DNA from: Pseudomonadota bacterium
GTDB taxonomy: Bacteria > Pseudomonadota > Gammaproteobacteria > Pseudomonadales > UBA5862
Direction: 5' to 3'
DNA: 64,000 bases
NCBI GenBank assembly: GCA_034189125.1
Contig: JAXHVB010000018.1
Span: 775 to 64,774 of the forward strand
The position numbers were made by a program, and so were the translations under genes. Below the pieces are notes generated by a model. It had not been told where the DNA came from, did not search any database, and saw nothing but the letters and a program-made list of their open reading frames with translations. The stretch's first letter is position 1; each line of letters opens with the position of its first letter. Positions 23,197 to 61,455 of the stretch are shown in pieces.

Positions 23197-23224
23197 TGTC
23201 GGATCAACGGAGACACTAGCGGCA

Positions 23225-25123: not shown

Positions 25124-25190
25124 GTCCTGCTTGCGCGCGCGTCCACAACCAGGGTGCGTGCCGTGCCTGCACCCCCTGGCGTTGGCTTCT

Positions 25191-27681: not shown

Positions 27682-27693
27682 CAGGAGACGCCC

Positions 27694-33288: not shown

Positions 33289-33896
33289 TCGATCGGGTGG
33301 ACGCAGTGGCCAGGGCCCAGAGGGCGTGGCAGAAGGTGACACGCGGGCTCTGTGTGTTGCTGGCGATGGGTGCTTCGGGTGGGGCGCTGGGGGCCGAAGG
33401 CTTTGCCAAAACACCGCAGGAGGAAGCCATGTGCAACGCGGCGATTTATCGCGGGCGGGACACCAGCGACCGCAACAACTGGCAGCACATGCACCACTAC
33501 TGCGATTGTCTGCGCTTTGCCCGCCGCGCCATGACCCAACCCGCCGCCTCCTCGGCACGCAGCCACAACATCAGCCGTGCCCTGGATGGCTGCGACTATG
33601 TGCTGGACCACACCAGTTCAGGCTTCTACATGCAGCCGGCCGTACGGGCTTCACGGGCCTACGTGTTGATGCTGGACAAGCGCTACCGCGACGCGGTGGC
33701 GGAGTACGAGCGGGCACTGCGGCAGGATCCGAATTACCTCAAGGCCTACATGGGGTTGTTCGACGCCTGGTCTGCAGCCGGTGACCTGCAGTCGGCCCGC
33801 AAGGCCGCCGAGCGGGGGCTTGCCATTTCCCCCAACTCCAAGGCACTGCAGCGGCGTCTGCGCAAGGTCACCCAAGAAGGTGAGGCGGACGGCTAG
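33285..33896 (+). CDS. small secreted TPR-repeat protein
   Basis: ATG at 33285 (ATGA overlap, AGGAG 8 nt upstream). Signal-like LCVLLAMGASGGALGAEG. C-terminal TPR-like helices (YRDAVAEYERALRQDPNYLKAYMGLFDAW, GDLQSARKAAERGLAISPNS). Confidence 0.6.
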   Translation: MIDRVDAVARAQRAWQKVTRGLCVLLAMGASGGALGAEGFAKTPQEEAMCNAAIYRGRDTSDRNNWQHMHHYCDCLRFARRAMTQPAASSARSHNISRALDGCDYVLDHTSSGFYMQPAVRASRAYVLMLDKRYRDAVAEYERALRQDPNYLKAYMGLFDAWSAAGDLQSARKAAERGLAISPNSKALQRRLRKVTQEGEADG

Positions 33897-43026: not shown

Positions 43027-44930
43027 GTCTCCAGGCGGCGCAGCGCAATCCAGCCGTTCCCATTGTGCGCCGTTGAGGCGTCAAGGTGGCTGGTGTAGCC
43101 CGGCACCTGGGGTGTGGCGTTTTCGGAGCTCGCGGCCGGCTCGAGGGCCACCAGCACCAGTTCTTCCCCGGTCCCAACGGGAACCACAAGCCAATCGGCT
43201 GGGCCAGCAATGGCAGCAGCGGATCGGTGGCGTCCGCCACCGGCTTCGGCATTGCCACCAAGAACGGAGGGCGGCAGACCGATTCCGGATTGGTGAAGCA
43301 TGCGCAGGGCATCGGCCAATGCTGAGCGCAGTGCTGGGTCGGGGTCCTGGCCACACAGGTGAAACAGGGTTTCCGCCCAGAACACCAGCGCGTAGGCTTT
43401 TTTGGGCTGCTCGCGCCAGTGTTCCAGCAGCCCGCTCGTTTGGGTGAATGCGATGCCTTGTTCTAGGGCTTCATCAACGCCTGGGCAATGGCTCCACGGG
43501 CGCAGGCGAGCGAGGTCCATCAGGTTGATGGACTGATAGGCGTCAGCAGTCCCCTGGATGGACAGCGCACGGTCAATGTATCCGTTGGGCATGACCAGGC
43601 GTGGCCAACGCGACTTGAGGCGGTGCAGCCTCGGGGCCAGGTACTTCCAGCCGAATCGTTTGATGGCGCGCATGGGGAGCGGCAGCGCGGCGGCAGTGTG
43701 CTCAGGCTGCATGTCCAGCCCCAGTATCCAGCTCACCAGGCGGTACAAAGGTTCCATGGGGCGGGCTTGCAGCACCGCTTGCAAGGCGCGTTCGGCGGAT
43801 GCGATCACAGCCGCGTGGGCCGAGTCTCCAGTGATTGCCTGATGGCGCAGCAGGGCAATGAGGGTGTCGATCTGGGTGTTCAGCACCAGCATGTTGCCAG
43901 GCTGCTTGCCGAGCGCGGTGCTGGAGGTCCACTTGAATGGACTCTTGGCCATGGCCTCTGCGCTTTGCTCAAGGCTGTCATGCAGGAACCAGACTCCCGC
44001 GTCAATGGTGCTGCGCTCGCCGACGATGAAGGCAACCGCACGCTGCAGTGCTGGCAACAGTGTGTTGTCCTGCTCCAGGGTCCAGTGGTCGAGAAGGCAA
44101 TGGATGGCGCTGCAGTGCAGGCGGTAGTGGCACTCCAGTTCGTCGGTCCAGAATCCGTGGTACCAACCGCCGTCAGGGCTTTGCCGATCAAGGATGGAGA
44201 GCACCATCTGGTGGCGTAGAAGCGCCGCGCAGGGGCTGTCGGCGAGTTCCCAACCGCGGGCGATTACATAGAGCGCATGGGCATCGTTCTCCGAGCAAAT
44301 GCGTCGGTAGTTCGGCCAGGAGCGCCGGTTTTCGTAGACGTGCCCATGCACCCAGTGCAGGTAGAAGTCCTGCGGGCTCTGTACCCGCTGGTGCGAGCCC
44401 CAGGGGTGCAGCGCCAGAGCAGCGGCTTCTCTGATGGCCAGCCAGGACTGCAGGTCCTCAATGCCATCCAGCACCCAGTAGACCAGGTCCAGGCAGTGCG
44501 ATCCCGGCAAGTGGAACCGAAGGCGGTGGGCGTCGTCATGGGTATGCCAACCGGACAGGGTGGCGTTGGATTCGATCTCGATCTGGCCCTTGTCGTCGAT
44601 GCGCCGCTGTTGGGGAACGCAGGGAATCCAAAGCGGGGCAGCGTGGCCTCGTTGATCCACCAGCAGCCAGCTTCCGTCGGCTTGCTGGGTCGCGGCCATT
44701 GCCTCTGGAAGACAGACATCTACGGATGCGTCATGGCTGGTGGTTGAGATGCGCAGTGACCAGACAGTTGCCGCAGTTCCACTGAAGCGATCGCACAGCC
44801 AGCTCAACTCAAGGCCGTCTTGCTGTTCGGACCAGCGGTGGCGCTGCGCTGCAGCGGTTTCGGTGGTTGGCTCCCCAGCGGTTGGCGGCAGCTGTGTTGG
44901 AGGTCGAATGTGGATGGTTGCTTCGGCCAT
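43017..44930 (-). CDS. hypothetical 637-aa protein with alpha/alpha-toroid-like C-terminal part (orphan enzyme)
   Basis: Start taken at ATG 44930 (Met137 of the track ORF; upstream sequence overlaps the preceding GT2). Contains a QW-like segment LDRQSPDGGWYHGFW and a helix-rich region NMLVLNTQIDTLIALLRH. No signal peptide or TM seen. Confidence 0.6.
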   Translation of the reverse strand: MAEATIHIRPPTQLPPTAGEPTTETAAAQRHRWSEQQDGLELSWLCDRFSGTAATVWSLRISTTSHDASVDVCLPEAMAATQQADGSWLLVDQRGHAAPLWIPCVPQQRRIDDKGQIEIESNATLSGWHTHDDAHRLRFHLPGSHCLDLVYWVLDGIEDLQSWLAIREAAALALHPWGSHQRVQSPQDFYLHWVHGHVYENRRSWPNYRRICSENDAHALYVIARGWELADSPCAALLRHQMVLSILDRQSPDGGWYHGFWTDELECHYRLHCSAIHCLLDHWTLEQDNTLLPALQRAVAFIVGERSTIDAGVWFLHDSLEQSAEAMAKSPFKWTSSTALGKQPGNMLVLNTQIDTLIALLRHQAITGDSAHAAVIASAERALQAVLQARPMEPLYRLVSWILGLDMQPEHTAAALPLPMRAIKRFGWKYLAPRLHRLKSRWPRLVMPNGYIDRALSIQGTADAYQSINLMDLARLRPWSHCPGVDEALEQGIAFTQTSGLLEHWREQPKKAYALVFWAETLFHLCGQDPDPALRSALADALRMLHQSGIGLPPSVLGGNAEAGGGRHRSAAAIAGPADWLVVPVGTGEELVLVALEPAASSENATPQVPGYTSHLDASTAHNGNGWIALRRLETWQ

Positions 44931-44938
44931 TCTCGGGG

Positions 44939-45946
44939 TCAGCGCATGCGAATGGATGGGGGGCAATCGCCGAAGCGGCGGAACAGGTAGTCGCGGGTCG
45001 CCTGGCGCAAGGCGCGTTGGCGTGGCGACTTCCACAGCAGGATGGCGTCCTTCAGTGCCCAGTAAACGCGGCGCACCGGACCGGTGCCCGGGGAGCTTGT
45101 CCAGGCGACCTTTGGCACCAGGCGGCGCAGGGCGGCGAACACCAGTGTGAGCCATTCGCGCCTGGGCAGATGTCGTTCGGCGAACAGCAGTTGGTTGCGG
45201 GCGCTGAAATAGGCGCGCAGAGGGGAGTCTTCGCCCCCGAAAGTGGCGGCTACTTTGTGTCGCACGAATGCGGCAGTGCACACCCGGCTGTTGTAACCTG
45301 CCCGGCGCGCACGCAGGCACCAGTCGGACTCCTCCCACACCAGAAAAAATCGCTCTTCAAACAAGCCAATCTCGCGCAGTGCGTCGGCGCGCAGCAGAAT
45401 CGCCGCCCCTGTGACCCAATCACAGTCGATCCAAGGTGTGGATGGGAGCGCACTGCGAGGGGCACCTTCCAGGTGGTGGACGCAGTTGAGCAGCCCCGGG
45501 CCGAAGCGTTCACCGGCCGTGCTGATGAGGTCCGGTTCGTGCGCTGAGCAGATCACAGGGCCAATGGCTGCAGTTTTTGGATCCTGTGCTGCAGTTTCCA
45601 GCAAAGCATTGAACAGACCGGGCTCCGCTTCCGTGTCGTTGTTGAGCACAAACACGTACTCTGCGCCGGTGTCTAGAGCGCGCTTGATGCCGACGTTGTT
45701 GCCGCCGGCATAGCCGAGATTGCGCCTGGTCTCGATCACTTCAACCTGCGGATAGCGGGCTCGAATCTCGGCCACCGAGTCATCTGTTGACCCGTTGTCA
45801 ACCACCAGGACGGAGGGCTGCTCAGGACAGGCTGCAGTGAGGGAGTTGAGGCACCGCAGTGTGTCTGCGCACCCATTCCAGTTCAGCACCACAGTCACCA
45901 CAGTCGGGTCGGGTGGCGCAGTAGACTCAGGGTTGGGATGGGTCAT
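44939..45946 (-). CDS. GT2 glycosyltransferase (rhamnosyltransferase-like)
   Basis: ATG at 45946 (ATGA overlap with the upstream gene). Motifs VVTVVLNWNGCADTLRCLNSL, VVDNGSTDDS and VFVLNNDT. Confidence 0.8.
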   Translation of the reverse strand: MTHPNPESTAPPDPTVVTVVLNWNGCADTLRCLNSLTAACPEQPSVLVVDNGSTDDSVAEIRARYPQVEVIETRRNLGYAGGNNVGIKRALDTGAEYVFVLNNDTEAEPGLFNALLETAAQDPKTAAIGPVICSAHEPDLISTAGERFGPGLLNCVHHLEGAPRSALPSTPWIDCDWVTGAAILLRADALREIGLFEERFFLVWEESDWCLRARRAGYNSRVCTAAFVRHKVAATFGGEDSPLRAYFSARNQLLFAERHLPRREWLTLVFAALRRLVPKVAWTSSPGTGPVRRVYWALKDAILLWKSPRQRALRQATRDYLFRRFGDCPPSIRMR

Positions 45947-49471: not shown

Positions 49472-50728
49472 TCAATCCTGGTCCTGGTCGACTTGGGAGA
49501 GGGCCCATTCGGTCGGAAGCGGAACAAAGCCAAACTCCCCGTTGCGGGCCCGGCTCTGCCCGTCGGCGAAACCCACGGTCACTGGGCAGAGATTTTCGGC
49601 GTAGTACGCCATGCTCGGTGGACTTCCGTGGGAGACCGCGAGCCGAAATGAATACACCCCGGGAAGAAATGGAAAATGCTGCACGCGCGCGTGCATCCGG
49701 TAGTCTCCGGGCTCAAGTGTCCCCGGACTGAATTCGCCTTCGGTGTCGGTGCTCGCCAAGTACAGCAGGTCCGTGGTGTGGACGCCGAGCCCGACGATGA
49801 GGTTGTCCGTGGTTGCCCGGATTCGCAGGTCGATCGCGAGCCGGGTCGCCCCATCGTAGTCCACCTGATCGGTGGCCACGCCTTCGGCGTCCACCAATTT
49901 GACACCGAGAACCTGGATTTGATCGGCGTCGCCTCCGAGTTGGTTGTTGGCACCCTGGCGCGCGACCGATTGTTTGATTTTTTCGTCGCTGCGTTGATAG
50001 AACAGGTTGCACACAGTTCGCGCATCGTCGTCAGCCACGACCTGTCCCCTGTCCAGAAGGACGACGCGGCTGCACAGTCGCTCGACTTGCCGCAAGTTGT
50101 GGCTGACCAAAATCACCGTTTTGCCCTGTCTCTTGATCAGTTCTTCCATTCGGTCAAAGCATTTGCGCTGAAATGCAATGTCACCCACGGCGAGGACCTC
50201 ATCGACGATGAGGAGGTCGGCATCCATGGACGTCGCGATGGCGAAGCCAAGGCGTACCTGCATGCCCGAGCTGTAGCGCTTCACAGGGGTGTCGATGAAC
50301 TGTTCGATCTCAGCAAATTCAATGATGCCATCGAGTTGCTCGCGGGTGCGTGCCTTGGGAATTCCGAGGATGGCGCTGTTCAGAAAAATGTTTTCCCGGC
50401 CAGTGAGTTCTGGGTTGATCCCTGCGCCCACTTCGATCAATGGGGCAACACTGCCATGCACCGACACCGACCCGCTGGTGGGTTGAGTGATGTTGGCCAG
50501 GTGTTTCAGGAGAGTGCTCTTGCCCGCGCCGTTCGACCCGATGATGCCGACCACCTCTCCAGAGGAGATGTGCAGGTTGATGTCCTGCAAAGCATAAAAC
50601 CGCTCGCGCTCCTTCACCGGACGACCGCTGAGTTTTCCAAAGGCTCGGGCCGCGGTTCCACGAATTCCGGCAATCTGTCCGAGCCGGTACTCTTTGTAGA
50701 GGTGGTCCACCTCGACAATCGATGACAT
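49472..50728 (-). CDS. wzt: polysaccharide/O-antigen ABC exporter ATP-binding protein with ~170-aa C-terminal extension (Wzt-like)
   Basis: Walker A GSNGAGKST, signature YSSGMQVRL and Walker B LLIVDEVL. After about aa 245 there is a beta-rich extra domain (VLGVKLVDAEG, RLAIDLRIRA, YSFRLAVS), as in Wzt carbohydrate-binding domains. Confidence 0.9.
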   Translation of the reverse strand: MSSIVEVDHLYKEYRLGQIAGIRGTAARAFGKLSGRPVKERERFYALQDINLHISSGEVVGIIGSNGAGKSTLLKHLANITQPTSGSVSVHGSVAPLIEVGAGINPELTGRENIFLNSAILGIPKARTREQLDGIIEFAEIEQFIDTPVKRYSSGMQVRLGFAIATSMDADLLIVDEVLAVGDIAFQRKCFDRMEELIKRQGKTVILVSHNLRQVERLCSRVVLLDRGQVVADDDARTVCNLFYQRSDEKIKQSVARQGANNQLGGDADQIQVLGVKLVDAEGVATDQVDYDGATRLAIDLRIRATTDNLIVGLGVHTTDLLYLASTDTEGEFSPGTLEPGDYRMHARVQHFPFLPGVYSFRLAVSHGSPPSMAYYAENLCPVTVGFADGQSRARNGEFGFVPLPTEWALSQVDQDQD

Positions 50729-50742
50729 GGGCTGGAAGTCCT

Positions 50743-51561
50743 TCAGATGACGTCGGCGAACCAGGCTTCGGCACGCTTAAAGAAAAGATAGCTGAGCGGT
50801 AGCAGCAGCAGGGTCAGCACGAGCCCTGGAGACAAGGTGGACCAGTCCGGTGGCAGTCCTTTCAGAAGAACGCGCTGAAAGTTGTCGATGATGCCCGCCA
50901 GGGGGTTGCAGAGGTACAGCGTGTACAAGCGATCCGACCAGTCGCCGGCCGCTTGCTGTACCACGAGCTTCTCGCGCACCAGCGAAAGCGGATAGATGAC
51001 CGGCGAAGTGTACATCAACAGCGACAGCACGACGGGCAGCATTTGTCCGACGTCGCGGTAGTACACGTTCATCGCGGCGCCGAAAAAACTGACAACCAGC
51101 GCTACCAGCATGGTGTAGCCGATGATCAGTGGCACCCAGAGTGCCTGGGCTGTCGGCAGCATCTGGTAATAGACCATCATGGCGGCCAGGATGAGGAAGC
51201 TGATCGCGAGTTCTACCGTTTTGGTCACCATGGCGGTCAGCGGAAACACCTCCCGTGGGAAGTAGATCTTTTTGATCAGAGGGGCATTGCCGGTGACGCT
51301 GTTGATGCCTTCCGAGGCCGACTCCTGAAAGAAGATCCACGGCAGCAGTGCTGCAAAGGTAAGGATGGGATAGGGCACGTCGCCACTTTCAATGCCGACG
51401 AACCCTTTGACGACGGTAAAGATCAGCATGAGCACCACGGGTTTGAGCACCGCCCAGGCAATACCGAGGTACGCTTGCTTGTAGCGCACTGAGATGTTTT
51501 TCCACGCCAGTGCACCGATCAACTCTCGGTAGTGGTACAGCCCTTGAATCGATTTGATCAT
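50743..51561 (-). CDS. wzm: ABC-2-type polysaccharide exporter permease (Wzm-like)
   Basis: 272 aa with six hydrophobic helices. N-terminal YRELIGALAWKNISVRYKQAYLGIAWAVLKP is the typical ABC2_membrane/Wzm start. Confidence 0.85.
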   Translation of the reverse strand: MIKSIQGLYHYRELIGALAWKNISVRYKQAYLGIAWAVLKPVVLMLIFTVVKGFVGIESGDVPYPILTFAALLPWIFFQESASEGINSVTGNAPLIKKIYFPREVFPLTAMVTKTVELAISFLILAAMMVYYQMLPTAQALWVPLIIGYTMLVALVVSFFGAAMNVYYRDVGQMLPVVLSLLMYTSPVIYPLSLVREKLVVQQAAGDWSDRLYTLYLCNPLAGIIDNFQRVLLKGLPPDWSTLSPGLVLTLLLLPLSYLFFKRAEAWFADVI

Positions 51562-52722: not shown

Positions 52723-53526
52723 TCAGTCGAACCAGCGGACCCGAGCTGGCAACTGGGTTTGCGCCAAAGCACCAGCCTTCAGGGCCTGCGCCAGCCGGCG
52801 TTCGGCCCGCCATGTGCGGTCCCTGACTTGGTACAGCGTGCCTTTTTCGGTTTGCGCCTGCCCCAAGGGCTGGGAGGCACCCAGCCGCTCCAGGACTTCG
52901 GTATAGGCCGTGGCGCTGTCGCGCACGGCGCGCCAGAAGAGTTCCAGTTCAGTGTCGTTCGGGCGCACTTCAGGGCAGACATGGGCGATGAGGTCGCCGG
53001 TGTCGATTCCTGCATTGATGAAGTGCAGCGTGCAGCCCACCTGCTCCGGCTCGCCATTGTGCAAGGCCCAGAACGTGCAATCCGCACCGCGGTAGTGGGG
53101 CGAGAGACCGCCGTGGAGGTTCACGATCCCCAGCCGGCCGAGGGTGAGCAAGTCGCCTTTGATGAGGGATGTGCCGAACACTGCGATCAGGTCCGGGTCC
53201 AGGGCGCGAATGCGTTCAACCAGGTCCGGGTGGTTGATGTGCGGAACACCCACCCGCAAATCGGGCCGGTTAAGTGCCGGAGAGGTATTGGGGAAGAAGA
53301 ACTCGGCTTCGGCGTTGCCGGTGTAGCGCCGCCGATCGCGCAGCCAGCGCCACGCCTTGCGGCCGAGGCTCGCGGGCTTGAGTTTCTTGCGCAGGGCAGG
53401 CCAGTCCAGGGCCGTGCCGGTCTCCTGCACAATGGCCTGGACATCGGCGTGTTCGCACAGCCGATTCGCCACGTACAGGTGGCGCGGCGCCTGACCGCAG
53501 AGAATCACCAAACGCAGTTCAGCCAT
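52723..53526 (-). CDS. formyltransferase-family protein (Fmt/PurN-like N-terminal fold only)
   Basis: IVNLHGGLSPHYRGAD carries the Asn-x-His catalytic pair, with the SLLPxxRG-type loop diverged to LSPHYRG, and GIDTGDLI carries the catalytic Asp. At 267 aa there is no C-terminal tRNA-binding domain. Confidence 0.75.
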   Translation of the reverse strand: MAELRLVILCGQAPRHLYVANRLCEHADVQAIVQETGTALDWPALRKKLKPASLGRKAWRWLRDRRRYTGNAEAEFFFPNTSPALNRPDLRVGVPHINHPDLVERIRALDPDLIAVFGTSLIKGDLLTLGRLGIVNLHGGLSPHYRGADCTFWALHNGEPEQVGCTLHFINAGIDTGDLIAHVCPEVRPNDTELELFWRAVRDSATAYTEVLERLGASQPLGQAQTEKGTLYQVRDRTWRAERRLAQALKAGALAQTQLPARVRWFD

Positions 53527-54709
53527 GCTTGCCCTCGGTGCCCTGCAGGCGGTTGTCGAGCATCAGCGCGTCGGCAAAGAACTTGGCCGCCCAGTTGGGA
53601 AATTCGAACCGCGAATAGTCTCCCCAGAAGGGTGCGGAACCGGCAATGGCGCCGTCGTCAAAGCGCCCGTCGCCGGTGCGACGTTGGTGGCGCTTGAGGT
53701 AGTCGAGCCCGCGGTCGACGGCGTCCTGGAAGGTCTGGTTGGCACGCCGCTCGATCAACCTGGACCAAATGATGCACATCTGAGCCAGCCCGGTCAGGCA
53801 CACGTAGTTGGCGCGCGGGCGCCATTGGTCATCCAGGGTGCCCGCGAGTGCACCGTTCTGAGGAAGGGCAGCGGCGACCGCGACCGCACTGCGCTCTGCG
53901 GCCGAGATCAGGTGGGTATCCTCCAGCAGCAGGCCCGATTCCAGCACTCCACGAATCGCATAGGCGATGGTGTGGGTAAAGGGAACGGCGCCGACTGTGA
54001 AGGCGTTGTTCGCGAACCAGCCTGCCGGGTTTTGCTGACTGAGTGCCCAGGCGAGGTTGCGCTTGGCGCCTTCAATCAGGGCGGGCTCTCCGGCCAGTAG
54101 TCCAGTTTGCAGCAGTGCCCAGGCGGCTCTGGTGTTGTAGGTGTGCGCAATTCCGTTGTGCACCGAGCGGCGCCAGCAGCCGTCTTCATCCTGCTGCGCG
54201 AGCATCCAGCGCCCGGCGCGCACCGCGGCGTCCAGGCAGCCCTGGTGCTGGAGTTGCCGATGGCCATGGTTCAGGCCATGCATGATCTGTCCGGTGTTGA
54301 AAATCACCGGTCGGCTGCCCGGCTCGCCGAAGTGGCCGGGGAATGCGCCGTCTGCATGCTGCAGGCTCAGCTCCCAGTCGAGGATTCTGCGCGCCCGCTC
54401 AACCAGATTCGGTCGATCGAGTACCTCGGCTGCCTGCAAGAAGGTTTCGACAATGTAGCCACTGGTTTCCGGATAGCTTGGCAGCCAACCGTCTTCGAAA
54501 CTCCATCCGGCGGATACACCGCCCTCATCGGCGCAGCCCTGACGCACGTCTTGAGCGCGACACAACCAATCGATTGCTGCGATCAAGTGGGGCAGGTGTT
54601 GTGGATCTGCCTTGTTGTCGATTTTCAGGGCGCTTTGCGCAATGAGGCCCAAATGCACCGGAGACCAAAGGCGGTAACGCAGCGGAGCCTGTACGATTTT
54701 CTTCAGCAT
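53519..54709 (-). CDS. prenyltransferase/squalene-oxidase-repeat-like (alpha/alpha)6-toroid protein
   Basis: Repeated QW-type motifs LQHADGAFPG, AQQDEDGCWRR and SQQNPAGWFAN are spaced ~50 aa apart. Helix-rich; no signal peptide. Confidence 0.6.
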   Translation of the reverse strand: MLKKIVQAPLRYRLWSPVHLGLIAQSALKIDNKADPQHLPHLIAAIDWLCRAQDVRQGCADEGGVSAGWSFEDGWLPSYPETSGYIVETFLQAAEVLDRPNLVERARRILDWELSLQHADGAFPGHFGEPGSRPVIFNTGQIMHGLNHGHRQLQHQGCLDAAVRAGRWMLAQQDEDGCWRRSVHNGIAHTYNTRAAWALLQTGLLAGEPALIEGAKRNLAWALSQQNPAGWFANNAFTVGAVPFTHTIAYAIRGVLESGLLLEDTHLISAAERSAVAVAAALPQNGALAGTLDDQWRPRANYVCLTGLAQMCIIWSRLIERRANQTFQDAVDRGLDYLKRHQRRTGDGRFDDGAIAGSAPFWGDYSRFEFPNWAAKFFADALMLDNRLQGTEGKHG

Positions 54710-54742: not shown

Positions 54743-56137
54743 TCAAGAGGCGCTTGTGGTGGATTCAGCGGTGGGAATGGCCACTTGGCTGACCACGTAG
54801 CGGTACTTCCCGGAAGCTTCGGCCTTGATCTGGTCAAGGTAGCAGATTTCCACATCCACTCGTTCGTCCAGGCGCCTGTGGATCTCTGATCGCAGGCGTT
54901 GCTCTTGCTCTTGGCGTGCCCGGTTCCAGGTTTCGTTGACCACCAGCTCAACGGTCAGGCGATCGATGTCGTGCTGCAGGATACGGAACTCAGCAACTCC
55001 GTCCAGTGCCCTGACCACGTAGATGAGTGCCAGAGCGTGCATGATGGTGCCGTCTCGACGCACAATGAAGTCGGTCTGGCGCCCAGCCACCTCTTCGATC
55101 ACGTGAAGGCCACGCCCGGCCGAGCAGGGCGCAGACCCCAGCCGCACCATGTCACCGGTGCGGTAGCGAACAAATGGTTGGGCATTGGAGCACAGTCCAG
55201 TCATGACAGCTTCTCCGAGTTCACCGTTCGCAACGGGATTTCCCTGCGGGTCCAGCACTTCGAGGACGATGCTTTCACTCATGAGTAGCATTTGCCCCTG
55301 TGGAGATTCATGGGCGGTGAAGCCGATGTCTCTACTGCCGAATTCATTGGCGACCGGAGCCTGAAAACACGACTGGATCAAGGAGCGCTGTTGGGGGTCC
55401 AAAGGCTCGCCTGTGGTGCAGACCACCTTGAGGTCAGGCAGATGCAGCTGGACGCCGCGGTTCTCTGCGTGCGCTGCGATCAGAGCCAAGCTGCTGGCGT
55501 ACCCATAGATGCAGTGGGGTCGGTAGCGCCCGATCGCGTCCAGGTACTCGTCCATGGCTGCGACGGACATCTCGAATGCATTGAGGACCAGCTGGTTGAG
55601 AGCGCGGTCTCGGAGTTGTTTCACGCGGTCGGTTTTGTTGAGTTCAACCGGTGCACCCCACAGGTATACCTCACGTTCTCCAGGCTGCACGCCCCACCAG
55701 CGCCGCGCCCGCATGCGACCCGCGGCATCGGATGCTTGGCGTTGGCGGCCAAAGTAAAAAATCAATGGCTGACCGGACGAGCCGCCAGTGTTGTACTTTT
55801 GGCTTCCCCCGGGCACCTTGGGCCAGTGAAGACCTTCACGGTTTTCGTTGGCTTCGGCCTTGGTCATGGTGGGCAGCAGCTTGAGTTGTTCGATGGAAAA
55901 GTCGTTGATCGCTCCAGGGTTGGACAACCCAGCCTGTTCGAGCCGGGCTCGATGCCATGGGCAGTGGTGCCAGGCGGTGTCGAGCAGGGCCTGCAATTTT
56001 CTGCTTTGCAGGTCCTCGATCTCCTGTCTTGCCCACCACTGACTGGATTCAAGCTCGCGCAAATAGCCGAAAGTCGGCCGCTTCATTGCCCATTCGTGGA
56101 GCGGGTAGAACAGGCTGCGCGCAACCAGGGCCTTCAT
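54743..56137 (-). CDS. CapK / phenylacetate-CoA-ligase / F390-synthetase-like adenylate-forming enzyme
   Basis: Start at ATG 56137 (Met77 of the track ORF). N-terminus LFYPLHEWAMKR, LESSQWW with the AMP-binding loop YNTGGSSGQPLIFYF and RYRTGDMV, typical of the PaaK/CapK clade. Confidence 0.75.
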   Translation of the reverse strand: MKALVARSLFYPLHEWAMKRPTFGYLRELESSQWWARQEIEDLQSRKLQALLDTAWHHCPWHRARLEQAGLSNPGAINDFSIEQLKLLPTMTKAEANENREGLHWPKVPGGSQKYNTGGSSGQPLIFYFGRQRQASDAAGRMRARRWWGVQPGEREVYLWGAPVELNKTDRVKQLRDRALNQLVLNAFEMSVAAMDEYLDAIGRYRPHCIYGYASSLALIAAHAENRGVQLHLPDLKVVCTTGEPLDPQQRSLIQSCFQAPVANEFGSRDIGFTAHESPQGQMLLMSESIVLEVLDPQGNPVANGELGEAVMTGLCSNAQPFVRYRTGDMVRLGSAPCSAGRGLHVIEEVAGRQTDFIVRRDGTIMHALALIYVVRALDGVAEFRILQHDIDRLTVELVVNETWNRARQEQEQRLRSEIHRRLDERVDVEICYLDQIKAEASGKYRYVVSQVAIPTAESTTSAS

Positions 56138-56344: not shown

Positions 56345-56350
56345 TATAGT
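56345..56350 (+). promoter_or_regulatory. candidate -10 hexamer (TATAGT) inside the AT-rich divergent promoter region 56138-56382
   Basis: TATAGT at 56345-56350 lies 33 nt upstream of the ATG at 56383. No convincing -35 at 17-bp spacing. A perfect TATAAT also reads on the minus strand at 56365-56370. Confidence 0.25.
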
Positions 56351-56382
56351 TGCATGGCTTTTCAATTATATCTGCAGAGTGT

Positions 56383-58215
56383 ATGCGAGAGATGTCCCCT
56401 AGGGTGCCGAGTGGGTTGTTTGTCCGGTGTTTGTCCGCCGATGCGCAGGTGCAAGCGGCGCCAGTTGCTGGCTTTGGCAGCGGTTGGGAACACCAGCAGG
56501 TGGGGCCCTTGGCCCTGTGGTCGAAGGCTGGGCTTGGTGACCGCGTCGAGTACCATCAGGATCCAGAAACCGGAATGCTGGCGCTGGTCTTTGGCCGTTG
56601 GGAAGTTCCTGGGCGGTCAGCCTCCCTGCAGCGTTGGTTCGCGGCCCATCAACAGGAGCCGAAAGCCGCTTTCAGGGCGCTCAGCGGCCGGTTCATTGCG
56701 CTCTTACATGATCCGCGCAGTGCCAGGGTGTGGGTGGCAACGGACCGCTTTGCAACCGTACCGCTGAGCCATCGCACCACGCCCGAGGGGTTGGAGCTCG
56801 CGACCGACCCTGGGCTGTTCCCGAGTTCGGGTTCGGTGCCCTTGGCTCTTTGTCCGCAGGCATTGTACGAGTACCTGTACTTTCACATGGTGCCGGCCCC
56901 AAGGTCGATCTACGCTGGGGTGTCCAAGCTCGGCCCTGCCCAGCAACTCCGTTGGGAGCAAGGGGCGCAGGAGGCCCAGGTGGAGGGTTATTGGATGCCG
57001 CGCTTTGAGGATCAGCCCCATGGGCGTGACCGATCCAATATGGAAGCGGCGCTCAGGTCGCACCTGGCGGAAGCTGTGCGCGCCAGCGCCTCCACTTGCA
57101 GCGCCGCTTTTTTGAGTGGTGGGCTTGACAGTTCCACCACCACTGGGCTGCTCGCCCAGGCGCGTGATGGCGACGTGGATGCCTTCTCGGTTGGCTTCGA
57201 GGCCGAAGGCTACGACGAGATGCCCTACGCGCGCATCGCTGCGCAGCACTTTGGCGTGCGCCACCACGAACTCTATCTTTCACCTGCCGACGTCGTCCGC
57301 CTGGTTCCTGAGGTGGCGGCATGCTACGGCGAGCCGTTTGGCAACTCTTCCGCGGTGCCTACGTTGTTCTGCGCGCAACAGGCCGCAGCGGCGGGCCACG
57401 GCGAGTTGATGGCTGGAGACGGAGGCGACGAGTTGTTCGCCGGCAATGAACGCTATGCCACTCAGGCCCTGTTCGAGCACTACGCTCGCTTGCCTCGCGG
57501 TGTCCGTGCCCTGGTCGACACCACGGACCGGTGCCTGAGTCCGGTTGCGAGCCATTGGCCGGTAAGCAAGCTGCGCCGGTATGTCGAACAGGCCCGGGTT
57601 CCTTTGCCGGACCGGCTGCAGGGCTACAACAATTTTCATATGCAGAGTGCTGCAGCCATTCTGCATCCGGACCTGCTCGGTCAGGTCGACCTGGATGCCC
57701 CGCTGAAATTGCTGCGGTCGGTGTATGCAGGTGCGGCTGCACAGACCAGCCTGCAGCGCATGCTGTGGCTGGATTGGAAGCAAACCCTGGCCGACAACGA
57801 CCTGCGCAAAGTCACCCAAATGACCCAGGCTGCCGGCGTGCGTGTCTGCTATCCGATGTTGGCTGAACCGGTGGTGGAGTTGGCCACCGAGATCCCGCCG
57901 CAATGGCTGTTGCCAAAGCGGCGGTTGCGGGACTTCTACAAGCGCGTCTACGCTGATTTTTTACCCCCAGCGATCCTGACCAAACCCAAGCACGGGTTCG
58001 GTTTGCCCTTTGGGGTTTGGCTCCAGACCGACCCGGGCCTTGGTGTCCTCGCCGGGGATGCTCTGGAGGGGCTGAAGGCCCGCAACATCGTGCACCCCGA
58101 CCACCTTGACCGTTTGCTGAAGCAACACGCCGCGGACCATGCAGCGTATTACGGGGAGCAGATTTGGGTGCTGATGATGTTGGAGCTGTGGCTGCAGGCC
58201 CATGGACACAGATAA
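56383..58215 (+). CDS. asparagine-synthase-family ATP-dependent amide ligase lacking the N-terminal Cys nucleophile
   Basis: Possible starts are TTG 56350, ATG 56383 and ATG 56392; none yields Met-Cys. A remnant glutaminase-like domain (FIALLHDPRSARVWVATDRFATVPL), an intact PP-loop AFLSGGLDSS and C-terminal KPKHGFGLP are present. Confidence 0.8.
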   Translation: MREMSPRVPSGLFVRCLSADAQVQAAPVAGFGSGWEHQQVGPLALWSKAGLGDRVEYHQDPETGMLALVFGRWEVPGRSASLQRWFAAHQQEPKAAFRALSGRFIALLHDPRSARVWVATDRFATVPLSHRTTPEGLELATDPGLFPSSGSVPLALCPQALYEYLYFHMVPAPRSIYAGVSKLGPAQQLRWEQGAQEAQVEGYWMPRFEDQPHGRDRSNMEAALRSHLAEAVRASASTCSAAFLSGGLDSSTTTGLLAQARDGDVDAFSVGFEAEGYDEMPYARIAAQHFGVRHHELYLSPADVVRLVPEVAACYGEPFGNSSAVPTLFCAQQAAAAGHGELMAGDGGDELFAGNERYATQALFEHYARLPRGVRALVDTTDRCLSPVASHWPVSKLRRYVEQARVPLPDRLQGYNNFHMQSAAAILHPDLLGQVDLDAPLKLLRSVYAGAAAQTSLQRMLWLDWKQTLADNDLRKVTQMTQAAGVRVCYPMLAEPVVELATEIPPQWLLPKRRLRDFYKRVYADFLPPAILTKPKHGFGLPFGVWLQTDPGLGVLAGDALEGLKARNIVHPDHLDRLLKQHAADHAAYYGEQIWVLMMLELWLQAHGHR

Positions 58216-58228: not shown

Positions 58229-59023
58229 ATGATCCAGTTGGCAGGTCCGAAGCGTCGCATCTCCATGTGGCTGGGCGCGCTCACAATTTGGATCGTCGCT
58301 TTGCTTCCGGTGTTCGCTGGCGCGTCGGAACTGGCCGACACAGTCGCCCGCGTCAAGGGGTCGGTGGTTGGCATCGGCACCCACCAGCCGACTGGGCGGC
58401 CACCGTCCCGATTGCTGGGAACCGGCTTTGTGGTTGGCAATGGCTTGCAGGTCATCACCAACGCGCATGTGCTGCCTGCCTCGCTGGACACTGAGCGGTT
58501 TGAAACGCTGGTTGTGTTCATTGGGTCCGGGGAGTCGCCGACGGCTCGCCCCGTGGAGATCAGGACGGTGGACCGCGACCACGATGTCGCGCTGCTTGGT
58601 ATCAAGGGGCAGGCGTTGCCGGCGCTGCAGCTCGGCGACTCGGAGCGGGTCAGAGAGGGTGAGCTTTATGCCTTTACCGGCTTTCCGATCGGTGCCGTGC
58701 TGGGGCTGTACCCGGCCACGCACCAGGGCCTGATCGCGAGCATTACGCCGGTGGCCATCCCTCAAGTTTCCCTGCGTGGGCTCGACGTGAACATGCTGCG
58801 CCGACTCCAGGACCCATACGAAGTGTTCCAGCTCGATGCCACTGCCTACCCGGGCAGTTCGGGCAGCCCTCTGTACCATCCAAAGACCGGTCGGGTGGTG
58901 GGCGTGATCAACAAGGTGTTCGTGCAGGGGACCAAGGAGTCCGCACTCGAGCGGCCAAGTGGCATCACCTACGCGATCCCCGTGCGACACGTGCGCCAGC
59001 TGCTTGAGGTGGACAGCCCCTAG
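58229..59023 (+). CDS. secreted trypsin-like (S1/DegP-core) serine protease without PDZ domain
   Basis: AGGAGG at 58218-58223 lies 5 nt before the ATG at 58229. Signal/TM WLGALTIWIVALLPVFAGA. Triad contexts VITNAHV (His), DHDVALLGI (Asp) and GSSGSPLY (Ser). Confidence 0.8.
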   Translation: MIQLAGPKRRISMWLGALTIWIVALLPVFAGASELADTVARVKGSVVGIGTHQPTGRPPSRLLGTGFVVGNGLQVITNAHVLPASLDTERFETLVVFIGSGESPTARPVEIRTVDRDHDVALLGIKGQALPALQLGDSERVREGELYAFTGFPIGAVLGLYPATHQGLIASITPVAIPQVSLRGLDVNMLRRLQDPYEVFQLDATAYPGSSGSPLYHPKTGRVVGVINKVFVQGTKESALERPSGITYAIPVRHVRQLLEVDSP

Positions 59024-59118: not shown

Positions 59119-60126
59119 TCAGACCTGGTAATAGTCCCGGTACCAGTCCACGAAGCGCGCGATCCCGGTTTCGATGGGGGTGGCCGGGCGGTAGCCGGTG
59201 TCGTTCATCAGGTCGTCCACATTCGCATAGGTGTCGGGCACGTCGCCGGGTTGCATCGGCAGCAGTTCTTTGCTGGCGCGTCGACCGAGGCAGTCTTCCA
59301 ACACTTCGATGTAGCGCAGCAGCTCGACCGGCCGGTTGCTGCCGATGTTATACAGCCGATAGGGCGCCAGGCTTGTTCCGGGGTCGGGGCTGTCTCCGGA
59401 CCATGCGGTATTGGGTGTGGCGACCTGGTCGAGGGTGCGAACCACGCCTTCGACGATGTCATCGACATAGGTGAAGTCGCGGCGGTGGTGGCCATGGTTG
59501 AACACCTGAATGGGCTCGCCGGCAAGAATCTTTTTGGTGAAGATGAACAGCGCCATGTCGGGCCGTCCCCAGGGCCCGTACACGGTGAAGAAGCGCAGTC
59601 CAGTGGTGGGGAGCTGGTACAGGTGGCTGTAGGTGTGGGCCATCAGCTCATTGGCTTTCTTGGTCGCCGCGTACAGGCTGACCGGGTGGTCGACGTTGTC
59701 GTGGATGGAGAACGGCATGTCTGTGTTCGCGCCGTACACCGAGCTGCTTGAAGCGTACACAAGGTGTTCCACGTCCGAGTGTCGGGCACCTTCGAGGACG
59801 TTGAGAAATCCCACCAGGTTTGCATCAGCGTAGGTGTGCGGATGCGTGATCGAGTAGCGGACCCCAGCCTGGGCCGCGAGGTGAACGATGCGCTGCGGTT
59901 GGCAGCGCGCGATCGTTTCCTGCATCGCCTGACGGTCGGCGATGTCGATTTCCGTGAGCTCGAAGCCTGTGCGGCCGGACAAGCGCGCGACCCTGGCCCG
60001 TTTCAGGTCCGGGCTGTAGTAGTCGTTCAGGTTGTCGATGCCGAGCACCTGGTCGCCGCGGTCCAACAGGCGCTGGGTGAGCGCCGCTCCGATGAACCCG
60101 GCAGCCCCGGTTACGAGAATGCGCAT
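59119..60126 (-). CDS. NAD-dependent UDP-glucuronate 4-epimerase-like SDR (CapI/WbnF type)
   Basis: MRILVTGAAGFIGAAL, GIDNLNDYYSPDLKRARV, SSSSVYG and YAATKKANE (YxxxK). Confidence 0.85.
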   Translation of the reverse strand: MRILVTGAAGFIGAALTQRLLDRGDQVLGIDNLNDYYSPDLKRARVARLSGRTGFELTEIDIADRQAMQETIARCQPQRIVHLAAQAGVRYSITHPHTYADANLVGFLNVLEGARHSDVEHLVYASSSSVYGANTDMPFSIHDNVDHPVSLYAATKKANELMAHTYSHLYQLPTTGLRFFTVYGPWGRPDMALFIFTKKILAGEPIQVFNHGHHRRDFTYVDDIVEGVVRTLDQVATPNTAWSGDSPDPGTSLAPYRLYNIGSNRPVELLRYIEVLEDCLGRRASKELLPMQPGDVPDTYANVDDLMNDTGYRPATPIETGIARFVDWYRDYYQV

Positions 60127-60177: not shown

Positions 60178-61455
60178 TCAGAGCCGTGCATCCACCGCCT
60201 CCTTGGGCAAGAGTGACTTGACGTCGAACACCACGTGGCTGGGTTTGCCGAGCGCGTGAATGCCGTTGGCGCCGAGGTCCACGAACTGGCGGTGCGCCAC
60301 GGCGATGATGATGGCGTCGTAGGTTTGCTCCGGACGCTCGGTGTGGACGCGGATCCCGTATTCATGTTCGGCCTGGTCGGGATCGATCCATGGGTCGTAC
60401 ACATCGACCTGCACGTTGTATCCCTGTAGAGCTTCAATGATGTCGATCACGCGCGTGTTGCGAATGTCAGGGCAATTCTCCTTAAAGGCCAAACCCAGCA
60501 CCAGGACTTTGGAGTCGACCACCTGGATTCGCTTGCGGGTCATCAGCTTCACGACCCGCTCGGTCACATAGATGCCCATGTTGTCGTTGATGCGCCGACC
60601 CGCCAGGATGACCTCGGGGTGGTAGCCGAGTTCTTGGGCCTTGTGGGTCAGGTAGTACGGATCGACACTGATGCAATGACCGCCAACCAGGCCGGGCTTG
60701 AAGGGCAAAAAGTTCCATTTGGTGCCGGCCGCAGCCAGAACGTCCTCGGTGTCGATCTCCAACCGGGCAAAAATCGTAGCCAACTCGTTGATCAGGGCAA
60801 TGTTCAGATCGCGCTGGGTGTTCTCGATCACCTTGGCGGCTTCGGCGACTTTGATGCTCGCAGCCCGGTGGGTCCCCGCAGTGATGATGCGTGCGTACAG
60901 CCGATCGACAAAGTCAGCGGCCTCCGGTGTGGACCCTGAGGTGACTTTCATGATTCCTGGAAGCCGGTGCTGCTTATCGCCGGGATTGATGCGTTCGGGG
61001 CTATAGCCGACGAAAAAGTCCCGGTTGAAGGTGAGCCCGGAGCCTTGCTCCAGGAGAGGGACGCAGACCTCTTCGGTGGCTCCCGGGTACACAGTGGACT
61101 CGAACACCACCACATTGCCGGGTTTGAGTACCTGCGCGATGGTGGAGGCCGCAGCACGCAACGGTCCCAGGTCGGGCTGGCGGTGCCGGTCGATGGGCGT
61201 TGGGACTGTGACGACATACACTGAGCACAGTGACAAGTCTTGCTGGTCGGCTGAGAACCGCAGTCCGGAGTTCAACTGCAGTTCACTGCTGTCGACTTCC
61301 AGCGTTCGGTCTTCGCCGCGCCTCAGCTCCTCAACCCGCGAGCGGTCGATGTCGAAACCGAGGGTCGGGAACTGCTTGCCGAATTCAACAGCGAGTGGCA
61401 GGCCAACGTACCCGAGGCCGATCACGCCGATCGAACAGCCGTCCAGGTCGAGCAT
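60178..61455 (-). CDS. UDP-N-acetyl-hexosamine 6-dehydrogenase family (TviB/WbpO/CapL-like nucleotide-sugar dehydrogenase)
   Basis: Start at ATG 61455 (Met106 of the track ORF). Motifs [54 protein letters not shown] and [13 protein letters not shown]. Confidence 0.85.

Follow-up and report, generated by a model that had tools for sequence, protein, structure and literature searches.

A glutaminase-less AsnB paralogue of XrtA exopolysaccharide loci as a putative ATP-dependent amide ligase with a nitrogen donor other than glutamine

Encoded at positions 56383-58215 on the + strand of the 64,000-nt stretch of DNA analyzed here (the window) is a 610-residue AsnB-family protein with a dead glutaminase, hereafter referred to as AsnB2, which is a real, uncharacterized member of a known enzyme class. 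The explanation that best accounts for it overall, and to which about an even chance is assigned, is that of a live AsnB synthetase half that amidates a uronate with nitrogen from a donor other than glutamine. The gene is found in an XrtA exopolysaccharide locus that includes XrtA, EpsB_2, stp1-3, FemAB, a deacetylase, and PEP_O_lig_1. Loci of the XrtA/PEP-CTERM type drive floc and biofilm formation in bacteria of wastewater, soil, and sediment, and to our knowledge very little has been learned of the chemistry of their polymers. A conserved AsnB paralogue that uses ATP but is devoid of glutaminase marks a specific and unexplained modification step in such a polymer. Literature searches for Cys-less AsnB proteins encoded at polysaccharide loci, and for ligases of the AsnB type that join amino acids to uronates, gave no matches.

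Results

The two AsnB paralogues of the window

The longest reading frame for AsnB2 extends on the + strand from a TTG codon at 56350 to position 58215 (621 amino acids). An in-frame TAG at 56347-56349 shuts the frame upstream and bars any earlier Met-Cys start, the outcome that an earlier note on this DNA had set against its own reading. The candidate start codons are TTG 56350, ATG 56383, ATG 56392, and GTG 56404, and public gene calls place the start at either ATG 56383 (610 residues) or ATG 56392 (607 residues). All four were inspected and none is followed by a cysteine, as the earlier note had maintained for the first three.

The only domain found in AsnB2 by Pfam is Asn_synthase (PF00733, 236.9 bits against a gathering threshold of 21, E=6.9e-70), with no GATase domain reported. 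The best-scoring curated model is TIGR03108, the WbpS type, at 222.7 bits, which is below its cutoff of 816.9 and covers profile positions 109-627 only. The scores against TIGR01536 (171 bits, cutoff 267.1) and PRK09431 (60.2 bits, cutoff 499) are likewise below threshold, as are those against the lasso-peptide cyclase and macrolactam cyclase models NF033535 and NF033561 (63.1 and 79.7 bits, cutoffs 525 and 300). The second paralogue, AsnB1 (23225-25123, + strand), begins with MCGIAG, retains an intact glutaminase site, and shows GATase_7/GATase_6 and Asn_synthase domains in Pfam. Its score of 1033 bits against TIGR03108 (cutoff 816.9) identifies it as an XrtA/PEP-CTERM amidotransferase of the WbpS type. 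The presence of two AsnB-family genes, the one at 23225-25123 being canonical, is thus as previously described. The possibility of a third AsnB paralogue was rejected, since the 64,000 nt contain only two SGGxDS PP-loops, one for each paralogue.

AsnB2 is not redundant with AsnB1 because the two proteins share only 29% identity, fall into clades that split in 100/100 bootstraps, and have both been kept in about 18 loci from different phyla. Redundancy with the canonical paralogue had been named beforehand as a result that would weigh against a distinct function, and the sequence identity and separate clades speak against it. AsnB2 also occurs in the absence of a nearby AsnB1 in the related loci L082, L084, and L085.

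The N-terminal domain

The N-terminal domain of AsnB2, delineated from residues 1 to 200 (56383-56982, + strand), is a vestigial Ntn-like fold from which the HRGPD, RLSIID, and NGEIYN motifs are absent. The position of Cys1 is taken by Ser10 in the segment SGLFVRC (56410-56430), an internal residue that becomes residue 3 when counted from the most downstream start. Indeed, Cys1, HRGPD, R49 (of RLSIID), N74-G75 (of NGEIYN), and D98 are all missing. The same motifs are missing from 56 of 56 orthologous ORFs (80 genome loci) and are kept in the same-locus AsnB1-type paralogues with complete N-termini; a few AsnB1-type ORFs in this comparison are truncated or are without single motifs. A Met-Cys start was observed in none of 120 close homologues of AsnB2 and in none of 148 representatives of the 50% clusters in its clade. 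Across the family, residues 1-95 are 13-14% identical and the synthetase core is 53-57% identical. The first ~95 residues of AsnB2 are in near-free evolution.

In one small lineage, comprising at least four clusters, a GNAT domain is fused to the N-terminus of AsnB2. Such a fusion buries the N-terminus and is therefore incompatible with N-terminal-nucleophile chemistry. Judged from the lost motifs, the role of a glutamine-hydrolysing Ntn amidotransferase is impossible for AsnB2.

The synthetase half and the predicted structure

The C-terminal synthetase features were said in the earlier note to be kept, and every motif that could be mapped is present. The PP-loop SGGLDSS, an ATP pyrophosphatase motif that had already been recognized, is positioned at 57115-57135. 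The GDGGDE motif (57415-57432) aligns with G347-E352 of E. coli AsnB (GEGSDE), such that D346 of AsnB2 stands at the position of E348. D473-L-R-K476 (57799-57810) aligns with D384...R387, and in K534-P-K536 (57982-57990) the second lysine corresponds to the catalytic K449 of E. coli AsnB; all four motifs lie on the + strand. The PP-loop, GDGGDE, D473, K476, K534, and K536 do not vary among 120 homologous sequences, whose 56 invariant columns cluster in the site for ATP and the acyl-adenylate. From these motifs, we infer that the synthetase half of AsnB2 is catalytically live. The residues T322, T323, and R325 of E. coli AsnB, which we take from the mutagenesis literature to form the aspartate site, align with P318, F319, and N321 (EPFGNSS) of AsnB2. 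The replacements read P-F-x-N in AsnB2 and P-F-x-D in AsnB1.

The AlphaFold (AF2) model of AsnB2 (pLDDT 93.6, pTM 0.93) displays the two-domain AsnB fold with a β-rich N-domain. A Foldseek search with this model returned whole AsnB-type structures, with TM values of about 0.55-0.68 to β-lactam synthetase, AsnB, and CarA, and matched PurF Ntn domains weakly. Both the β-rich N-domain and the Foldseek matches support the vestigial glutaminase-like fold that had been proposed from the sequence.

Breadth of the AsnB2 clade

The AsnB2 clade is monophyletic and is separated from the canonical paralogues in 100/100 bootstraps (NJ tree, 100 replicates); L046:6554-8398, a third and distinct paralogue type with 27% identity, was left out of this test. 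The clade contains more than 150 clusters at 50% identity from the Proteobacteria, Acidobacteria, and Nitrospirae, and the glutaminase residues are missing from every member examined. Loss of the cysteine is the ancestral state of this large clade and not a local event, which overturns the earlier view of a paralogue that had lost it locally. Those members of the clade that carry a specific database name are mostly designated 'asparagine synthase (glutamine-hydrolysing)', a label that is contradicted by their sequences.

Gene neighborhoods

Directly downstream of AsnB2 on the + strand is the gene for a secreted Trypsin_2 serine protease of 264 residues (58229-59023), which has an intact H/D/S triad and a signal peptide and in which no PDZ domain was found. 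Its SD sequence, GCAGGAGG, straddles the AsnB2 stop and the gap between the genes is 13 nt, and thus the two form one operon. Translational coupling of the pair is seen in the window, L082, and L085. The protease is present in only about 6 of 67 AsnB2 loci, and its family, which tracks with the epimerase and the XrtA accessory genes, is also found without AsnB2 (L088). An obligate partnership of the kind formed by a lasso-like protease and cyclase pair was rejected, given that the protease occurs without AsnB2.

Beyond the protease, on the - strand, are genes for an SDR-family nucleotide-sugar epimerase/dehydratase (59119-60126), TviC/WbpP-like and below all cutoffs, and for a 425-residue UDP-N-acetylhexosamine 6-dehydrogenase (60178-61455), which is predicted to make a uronic acid precursor. 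The latter scores 387 bits against TIGR03026 and, with the TviB model, 590.2 bits versus a cutoff of 592. These two genes lie at the place near AsnB2 to which the earlier note had assigned uronic-acid biosynthesis genes.

Divergent from AsnB2, on the - strand, is the gene for a CapK/PaaK-like adenylate-forming enzyme of 464 residues (54743-56137). It forms a module with genes on the same strand for an SQHop_cyclase_C-like protein (53519-54709) and an ArnA-N-like formyltransferase (52723-53526), and this module is conserved in L085 and L038. No sigma-70 or sigma-54 promoter consensus was found in the 245-bp divergent intergenic region, and across the window the sigma-54-like matches number 27 versus 48.8 expected, which is below chance.

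Elsewhere, members of the AsnB2 clade occur mostly in XrtA/PEP-CTERM exopolysaccharide loci, often beside a canonical WbpS-type amidotransferase. One orthologue is that of Alkalilimnicola ehrlichii MLHE-1. The AsnB2-protease-epimerase-dehydrogenase module recurs in a close relative, L082, away from any XrtA locus. Only about 6-8 of about 65 AsnB2 loci have a TviB-like dehydrogenase within 6-10 kb, and the link to uronates is therefore strong only for the subclade of the window itself. Of 62 loci, 16 have a polysaccharide deacetylase gene within 10 kb and 12 have a CapK gene within that distance, with CapK adjoining AsnB2 in the window, L083, L085, and L063. In 15 of 67 loci an ACP gene lies within 6 kb of AsnB2, in some cases as its immediate, divergently transcribed upstream neighbor, and an acyl-CoA/AMP-ligase and a PLP decarboxylase are each nearby in 13 of 67. 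No such ACP/ligase/decarboxylase set was found in the window. Note that for the loci in which these genes accompany AsnB2 (13-15 of 67) a non-sugar substrate would fit equally well.

Discussion

Proposed function

It is very probable that AsnB2 binds ATP at its PP-loop and adenylates the carboxylate of its substrate with the release of PPi. Family relationship and gene neighborhood tip the balance slightly toward the C-6 carboxylate of an N-acyl-hexosaminuronic acid unit of the exopolysaccharide, which may be presented either as a UDP-sugar from the adjacent dehydrogenase and epimerase or as a lipid-linked repeat unit. The earlier note had likewise regarded a uronate carboxylate as the likely substrate; the nearest curated family (WbpS/TIGR03108) and the adjacent genes here and in L082 are consistent with this. 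The acyl-adenylate would then be resolved by a nitrogen nucleophile other than glutamine-derived ammonia, glutamine being excluded by the sequence. The chance that this donor is an organic amine, such as an amino acid or a de-N-acetylated or aminoacylated sugar reacting through its amine, is put at about one half; for free ammonia it is somewhat below that, and for anything else it is slight. The product would be a primary or an N-substituted uronamide. A protein amine, which had also been suggested as the acceptor, found no support. AsnB2 would work alongside, and not in place of, the WbpS-type AsnB1 of the core XrtA set, and its dead glutaminase remnant is presumably purely structural. ATP-dependent formation of a hexosaminuronate amide with a non-glutamine donor is thus a plausible fit to the evidence.

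In a bolder and distinctly tentative form of this proposal, the AsnB2 clade might represent an unrecognized class of polysaccharide amide ligases that adenylate the carboxylate of a hexosaminuronate and link it not to ammonia but to an organic amine, which might be an amino acid, an amine produced by a decarboxylase, or the free amine of a sugar that has been de-N-acetylated or aminoacylated. N-Substituted uronamides would result, or else lactam cross-links within or between chains. Such products, if formed, could help XrtA/PEP-CTERM exopolysaccharides to cohere in flocs and biofilms.

Comparison with known systems

WbpS, WbqG, and PGN_1234, all members of TIGR03108, make uronamides (PMC7468200). 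Enzymes of this type, AsnB1 included, share with AsnB2 the two-domain AsnB architecture, the motifs FLSGGxDSS, EPFxxSSAxP, GDGGDE, and K-x-GF, a location in polysaccharide loci, and the same manner of replacement of the Asn synthetase aspartate-site residues. AsnB2 differs, however, in having lost all glutaminase residues, such that ammonia cannot be drawn from glutamine, and in belonging to a separate clade (100/100) with 29% identity to AsnB1.

The closest solved structure by sequence is that of the TsnB9 hydroxyamidotransferase (7YLZ; E=7e-11 alone, 8e-37 with a profile), which is also the closest by fold, with a TM of 0.71-0.75 to the AsnB2 model. TsnB9 is an AsnB-type enzyme that supplies a nitrogen nucleophile of an unusual kind to a carboxylate activated by adenylation. 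It comes from a natural-product pathway and is 15% identical to AsnB2 in the Foldseek alignment. The N-terminal hydrolase site of TsnB9 is a working one that frees hydroxylamine from a glutamate derivative.

β-Lactam synthetase (1JGT/1MBZ) and CarA (1Q15) are, like AsnB2, Cys-less with a vestigial N-domain and an equivalent of the catalytic lysine, and they match the AsnB2 model with Foldseek E values of about 1e-18 and TM values of about 0.53-0.69. With about 13-16% identity, the resemblance is one of kind and not of orthology. Unlike what is proposed for AsnB2, these enzymes form intramolecular β-lactams on small secondary-metabolite substrates, and no clavulanate or carbapenem biosynthetic context was found at AsnB2, where all annotated neighbors are polysaccharide genes. 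The lasso-peptide and albusnodin/ikarugamycin macrolactam cyclases are also Cys-less AsnB homologues that form isopeptide or lactam bonds by adenylation. No leader-peptidase or RRE partner was seen among the annotated genes of the window and related loci, and no transglutaminase-like peptidase among the annotated neighbors of AsnB2.

ATP-dependent attachment of an amino acid to the uronic acid of an exopolysaccharide, a function like the one that the earlier note had proposed for AsnB2, has been assigned to the VpsH/CapK type, VpsH of V. cholerae, a relative of CapK, being implicated in the addition of glycine (PMC13463779). These enzymes have the unrelated ANL/PaaK fold, and VpsH/CapK is a competitor for the role rather than a relative. 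The CapK/VpsH-like neighbor of AsnB2 is an equally good candidate for amino-acid attachment. Weighing against a uronate role for AsnB2 is the observation that the locus already contains AsnB1 for a primary amide and a CapK/VpsH-like ligase for an amino-acid amide.

Alternative explanations

The carboxylate may instead belong to a non-sugar group. AsnB2 would then amidate or ligate an amino-acid or acyl pendant group supplied by other enzymes of the locus, such as the ACP/acyl-CoA ligase/PLP decarboxylase/hydrolase set, the CapK-like ligase, or a FemAB/GNAT aminoacyl transferase, by converting, for example, a side-chain or α-carboxylate into an amide. There is precedent in LtsA/AsnB1, which amidates meso-diaminopimelate in peptidoglycan. 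The frequencies of ACP (15 of 67 loci), AMP-ligase (13), and decarboxylase (13) genes, the CapK genes in 12 of 62 loci and adjacent to AsnB2 in the window, L083, L085, and L063, and the existence of the GNAT-AsnB2 fusion all argue for such a role. The window is nevertheless without the ACP/ligase/decarboxylase set, the module of L082 consists of only the sugar dehydrogenase, epimerase, and protease in addition to AsnB2, and uronic acids are the substrates of the closest curated family (PMC7468200). A pendant-group substrate is regarded as unlikely. That AsnB2 is a non-catalytic pseudoenzyme, a scaffold or regulator partnered, for example, with AsnB1 or the glycosyltransferase machinery, is improbable. 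One of its two ancestral activities has certainly been lost and it frequently co-occurs with AsnB1, but the 56 invariant columns, including the PP-loop and K536, cluster in the ATP/acyl-adenylate site, the synthetase core maintains 53-57% identity versus 13% in the dead part, and L082, L084, and L085 have AsnB2 and no nearby AsnB1.

A cyclase or cross-linker of the β-lactam-synthetase or lasso-cyclase type would join the adenylated carboxylate to an amine located either in the same molecule or in a peptide or protein, and the protease might supply a new amino terminus. Every characterized Cys-less AsnB homologue known to us performs chemistry of this sort, Foldseek matches AsnB2 to β-lactam synthetase and CarA, and the protease gene shows translational coupling at three loci (the window, L082, and L085). 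Yet the lasso and macrolactam models reach only 63 and 80 bits where 525 and 300 are needed, the signal peptide would place the protease in the periplasm whereas AsnB2 needs cytoplasmic ATP, and the protease, found in only about 6 of 67 AsnB2 loci, follows the epimerase and XrtA accessory genes and exists in L088 without AsnB2, leaving this reading very improbable. Retention of glutamine or amide hydrolysis through a Ser/Thr N-terminal nucleophile, or from a misassigned gene start, is effectively refuted. About 44% of the 148 representatives do start with Met-Ser or Met-Thr, and weak GATase_7 matches are seen in many homologues; residue 2 is not conserved, however, with Ala, Asn, Pro, Arg, Lys, and Gly also observed, and the GATase_7 matches are limited to the structural second half of the domain. 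The serine equivalent to Cys1 is residue 10, or 3 from the most downstream start, the glutamine-binding and oxyanion motifs are all missing, N-terminal fusions exist, and the TAG codon blocks an upstream start.

Implications

Identification of the nitrogen donor would, for uronate amidation by AsnB2, define a third family that amidates uronic acids after the ATP-grasp and CapK/VpsH types; otherwise, a pendant group of a new type would come to light. Studies of floc formation refer to earlier reports that two 'glutamine-dependent' asparagine synthase genes, asnB and asnH, are required in clusters of this kind (PMC7662799, PMC13453990, PMC9012009). If either is an AsnB2 orthologue, only the chemistry is missing and a floc phenotype already exists. 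In P. gingivalis, the VimE/VimA/WbpS trio acts on one sugar (PMC7468200), an arrangement paralleled by the GNAT-AsnB2 fusion.

AsnB2 and its Canonical Paralogue

Two genes with an SGGxDS PP-loop motif, and only two, are present in the window. The first (23225-25123, +), referred to as AsnB1, is of the canonical glutamine-hydrolysing type, as the earlier note had it: its product begins with MCGIAG, contains GATase_7/GATase_6 and Asn_synthase domains, and is a full member of TIGR03108 (XrtA/PEP-CTERM system amidotransferase) at 1033 bits versus a cutoff of 816.9. The second, AsnB2 (56383-58215, +), is the subject of this report. Its longest frame extends from a TTG at 56350 to 58215 and is ended on the upstream side by an in-frame TAG at 56347-56349. 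Each of the four candidate starts (TTG 56350, ATG 56383, ATG 56392, and GTG 56404) was inspected, and none is followed by a cysteine codon; with the TAG blocking upstream extension, the reported lack of a Met-Cys start holds. The identical gene, called from ATG 56383 (610 aa) or ATG 56392 (607 aa), is present in metagenome assemblies made independently for this organism. The Pfam content is Asn_synthase alone (E=6.9e-70), with no glutamine-amidotransferase domain. The top curated model is again TIGR03108 (222.7 bits), the match beginning at profile position 109.

Loss of the Glutaminase Half

A search of 5.8 billion proteins revealed at least 120 AsnB2 homologues with identities of 40-54%, and none of the 120 listed has a Met-Cys start. 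Many begin with M-x-G-L-C-G-W, a remnant of MCGIAG in which another residue stands in place of Cys1. One genome per species was then scanned, and the residues aligning with the Cys1, HRGPD, RRLSIID, NGEIYN, and D-T-E motifs of AsnB1 were compared in the best 80 loci. Every motif is missing from all 56 AsnB2-like ORFs. The AsnB1-like ORFs with complete N-termini retain the glutaminase motifs, often in the same loci, and a few others are truncated or lack single motifs. An exhaustive profile search over 1.84 billion cluster representatives, from which the best 150 matches were taken (all at least 607 bits), added 148 new representatives: none displays a Met-Cys start or a glutaminase motif, and 146 contain the PP-loop. 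In a neighbor-joining analysis based on 392 synthetase-domain columns, 55 AsnB2 sequences separate from 44 AsnB1-type sequences in 100/100 bootstraps. The absence of the cysteine thus stands; the loss is not a local event, however, but a trait of the clade.

Conservation along AsnB2 is strongly asymmetric. Among the 120 listed sequences, identity to the window protein is 13-14% for residues 1-95, 57% for residues 216-360, and 53% for residues 451-610. In at least four clusters of the clade (65-100% identical, three data sources), an Acetyltransf_6 domain (FemAB/CelD-like GNAT) is fused to the N-terminus, as in proteins P0307, P0389, P0390, and P0391 and in ORF 3236-6499 of locus L093. Because their N-termini are fused, a role for these as Ntn nucleophiles is ruled out. 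The fusion locus is of the polysaccharide type (Wzx, GT4, UbiA, O-acyltransferase, WbsX, sulfotransferase). Judged from sequence, the nitrogen donor for AsnB2 cannot be glutamine. Clade members with a specific public name are usually called "asparagine synthase (glutamine-hydrolysing)", which is a systematic mis-annotation; many others have generic family names only. A third, very divergent AsnB-like type was observed in Methyloversatilis universalis (locus L046, 6554-8398). Sharing 27% identity with AsnB2, it carries HRGAA instead of HRGPD and an SGGIDSA PP-loop, and lies outside both clades.

The Synthetase Half and Predicted Structure

When AsnB2 is aligned by profile with E. coli AsnB (1CT9), its SGGLDSS stretch corresponds to the PP-loop, G345-DGGDE to G347-EGSDE (D346 for E348), and D473, K476, and K536 to D384, R387, and K449, respectively, so that the synthetase features attributed to the protein are indeed retained. 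We take the roles of these AsnB residues to be those known from structural and mutagenesis studies. Across the 120 listed sequences, 56 AsnB2 columns are invariant. The synthetase half is predicted to be active, and its ATP/acyl-adenylate site is, by sequence, under strong purifying selection. Where E. coli AsnB has Thr 322, Thr 323, and Arg 325, the aspartate/β-aspartyl-AMP determinants, AsnB2 reads P-F-x-N and AsnB1 P-F-x-D, and because of these replacements neither protein resembles a true asparagine synthetase.

The AlphaFold2 model of AsnB2 (pLDDT 93.6, pTM 0.93; 120-sequence alignment) has a β-rich N-domain and a helical/Rossmann C-domain. In a Foldseek search of the PDB, the hydroxyamidotransferase TsnB9 ranked first (TM 0.71-0.75), followed by β-lactam synthetase, the asparagine synthetases of E. 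coli and humans, and CarA; weak partial matches were to PurF-type Ntn domains. The N-domain and these matches support the vestigial glutaminase-like fold suggested earlier.

Genomic Context

By its gene content, the window is a textbook XrtA/PEP-CTERM exopolysaccharide locus. Export and chain-length genes (6720-11694) precede a core set at 11701-29007 (ATPase, WecB, XrtA deacetylase, FemAB, stp1, XrtA, RmlACDB, stp2, AsnB1, stp3, PEP_O_lig_1). A variable block on the minus strand encodes GT2/GT4 transferases, sulfotransferases, a GT2-sulfatase fusion, FkbM, WbsX, Wzm/Wzt, GT2, a formyltransferase, a SQHop_cyclase_C-like protein, and a CapK/PaaK-like adenylating enzyme (CapK, 54743-56137, -), from which AsnB2 is divergently transcribed. 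A secreted, PDZ-less, trypsin-like protease (58229-59023, +; start ATG 58229) is co-transcribed with AsnB2 across a 13-nt gap containing a Shine-Dalgarno sequence. There follow, convergently, an SDR epimerase (59119-60126, -) and a UDP-HexNAc 6-dehydrogenase (60178-61455, -; 590.2 bits versus a cutoff of 592 for the TviB model, 387 bits for TIGR03026), namely the uronic-acid genes placed 1-3 kb away in the earlier note, and then the priming transferase EpsB_2. NTP_transf_5, ScmC, PrsK, and PrsR lie past the window end.

XrtA loci that carry an AsnB2 orthologue come from Gamma- and Betaproteobacteria, Kiloniellaceae, Acidobacteria, and Nitrospirae. Genes no more than 10 kb from AsnB2 include PEP_O_lig_1 (23/62 loci), AsnB1 (~18/62), stp3 (18/62), a polysaccharide deacetylase (16/62), and CapK (12/62). 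Window-independent neighbor clustering gave ACP (15/67 loci), AMP-ligase and PLP decarboxylase (13/67 each), and Wzx flippase (12/67). The closest relatives, loci L085 and L082, share window-specific modules. In L085 a GT2-deacetylase-formyltransferase-SQHopC-CapK group is divergent from AsnB2-protease, and the CapK-AsnB2-protease module adjoins the flagellar genes fliD/fliS. In L082 (10001-15062), from a Pseudomonadales MAG, AsnB2-protease is followed by the convergent epimerase and dehydrogenase amid unrelated genes (GGDEF/EAL, NnrS, MFS) and outside any XrtA locus. Of the contextual evidence, this arrangement argues best that the window's subclade may act on the hexosaminuronic acid produced by the neighboring genes. 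The protease, whose family members in many Gammaproteobacteria are 55-65% identical, was rejected as a dedicated AsnB2 partner: its family adjoins a TviC-like epimerase without AsnB2 in locus L088 and sits beside XrtA-associated ligase/decarboxylase or ScmC/NTP_transf_5 genes in L012, L015, L089, and L090.

Possible Function

AsnB2 would adenylate a carboxylate, and the acyl-adenylate would be resolved by an externally supplied nitrogen nucleophile. In the VPS polysaccharide, an amide bond joins glycine to a derivative of guluronic acid. VpsH of V. cholerae, which is PaaK/CapK-like, has been genetically linked to glycine addition on the VPS repeat unit (PMC13463779), and the window CapK is thus a strong candidate for an amino-acid-uronate ligase in its own right. 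Uronic acids are converted to uronamides by the TIGR03108 members WbpS, WbqG, and P. gingivalis PGN_1234. In P. gingivalis, VimE removes the N-acetyl group from the same sugar and VimA, a FemAB-like protein, aminoacylates it; a parallel with PEP-CTERM loci was drawn by the authors (PMC7468200).

For the window's subclade mainly, the carboxylate is most likely that of a hexosaminuronate, given the WbpS-type kinship of AsnB2, the dehydrogenase and epimerase genes beside it both here and in L082, and repeated deacetylase and GNAT partners, which mirror VimE/VimA/WbpS. Clade members elsewhere, with their ACP/ligase/decarboxylase neighborhoods, may possibly use a non-sugar substrate. With regard to the nucleophile of AsnB2, either free ammonia or an organic amine may serve. 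We lean slightly toward a bulkier amine bypassing the internal tunnel, since decay of the glutaminase half is complete, ancient, and universal, and N-terminal fusions are tolerated. With AsnB1 for a primary amide and CapK as candidate for an amino-acid amide already in the locus, AsnB2 presumably acts on another sugar or with another amine. The earlier reading of an unusual-amide uronate ligase was reasonable and is supported in part, namely in the non-glutamine donor and, for this subclade, the uronate link; the protein-amine option is unsupported.

Known glutaminase-less adenylating enzymes of the AsnB superfamily belong to secondary-metabolite or RiPP pathways, whereas exopolysaccharide loci would be a new setting. 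For the Rubrivivax psc1 cluster, three "asparagine synthase (wbpS)" genes are listed along with CapK, and two of these have been hit by transposons (PMC3684757); Zoogloea/Aquincola-type clusters are described as having two asparagine synthetase genes (PMC9012009). Two later papers cite earlier studies for a requirement for asnB and asnH in floc formation, and one of the two terms these genes "glutamine-dependent" (PMC7662799, PMC13453990). Our literature search turned up no mention that one of the paralogues is without the glutaminase nucleophile. This large and consistently mis-annotated clade is associated with a polymer system that matters ecologically and is chemically obscure; the proposal is directly testable, although a specialist would not be astonished by it.

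Additional Features of the Window

Two Sulfotransfer_3 genes (29020-29949, +; 38014-39063, -) and a 1058-aa fusion (33893-37069, -) of GT2 with a sulfatase-like part of the alkaline-phosphatase superfamily suggest that the exopolysaccharide may be sulfated or phospho-substituted. A Wzm/Wzt ABC polysaccharide exporter (49472-51561, -), its Wzt bearing a C-terminal carbohydrate-binding domain, accompanies the Wza/Wzc-like XrtA export set, and thus two export routes are encoded. In a 550-aa ORF (4896-6548, -), the acyltransferase domain TIGR03694 (PEP-CTERM/exosortase-associated) covers residues 304-535 only, the 300-aa N-terminal part being unannotated; an MMPL/HpnN-like RND transporter (2595-4895, -) adjoins it. 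At 52723-54709 (-) lie an ArnA-N-like formyltransferase and the 396-aa SQHop_cyclase_C-like protein, a terpene-cyclase/GH127-like α-barrel whose fold is odd for such a locus; with CapK they form a conserved module also observed in L085 (6429-8431) and L038. No Pfam/NCBIfam family was found for 43017-45338 (-), 29946-31115 (+), and 37077-38000 (-), nor an NCBIfam family, the one collection scanned, for 108-899 (+), despite coding-like GC3 in all four. One of these family-less ORFs, of 773 aa, has a 45%-identical relative in the Nitrospirae XrtA locus L047.
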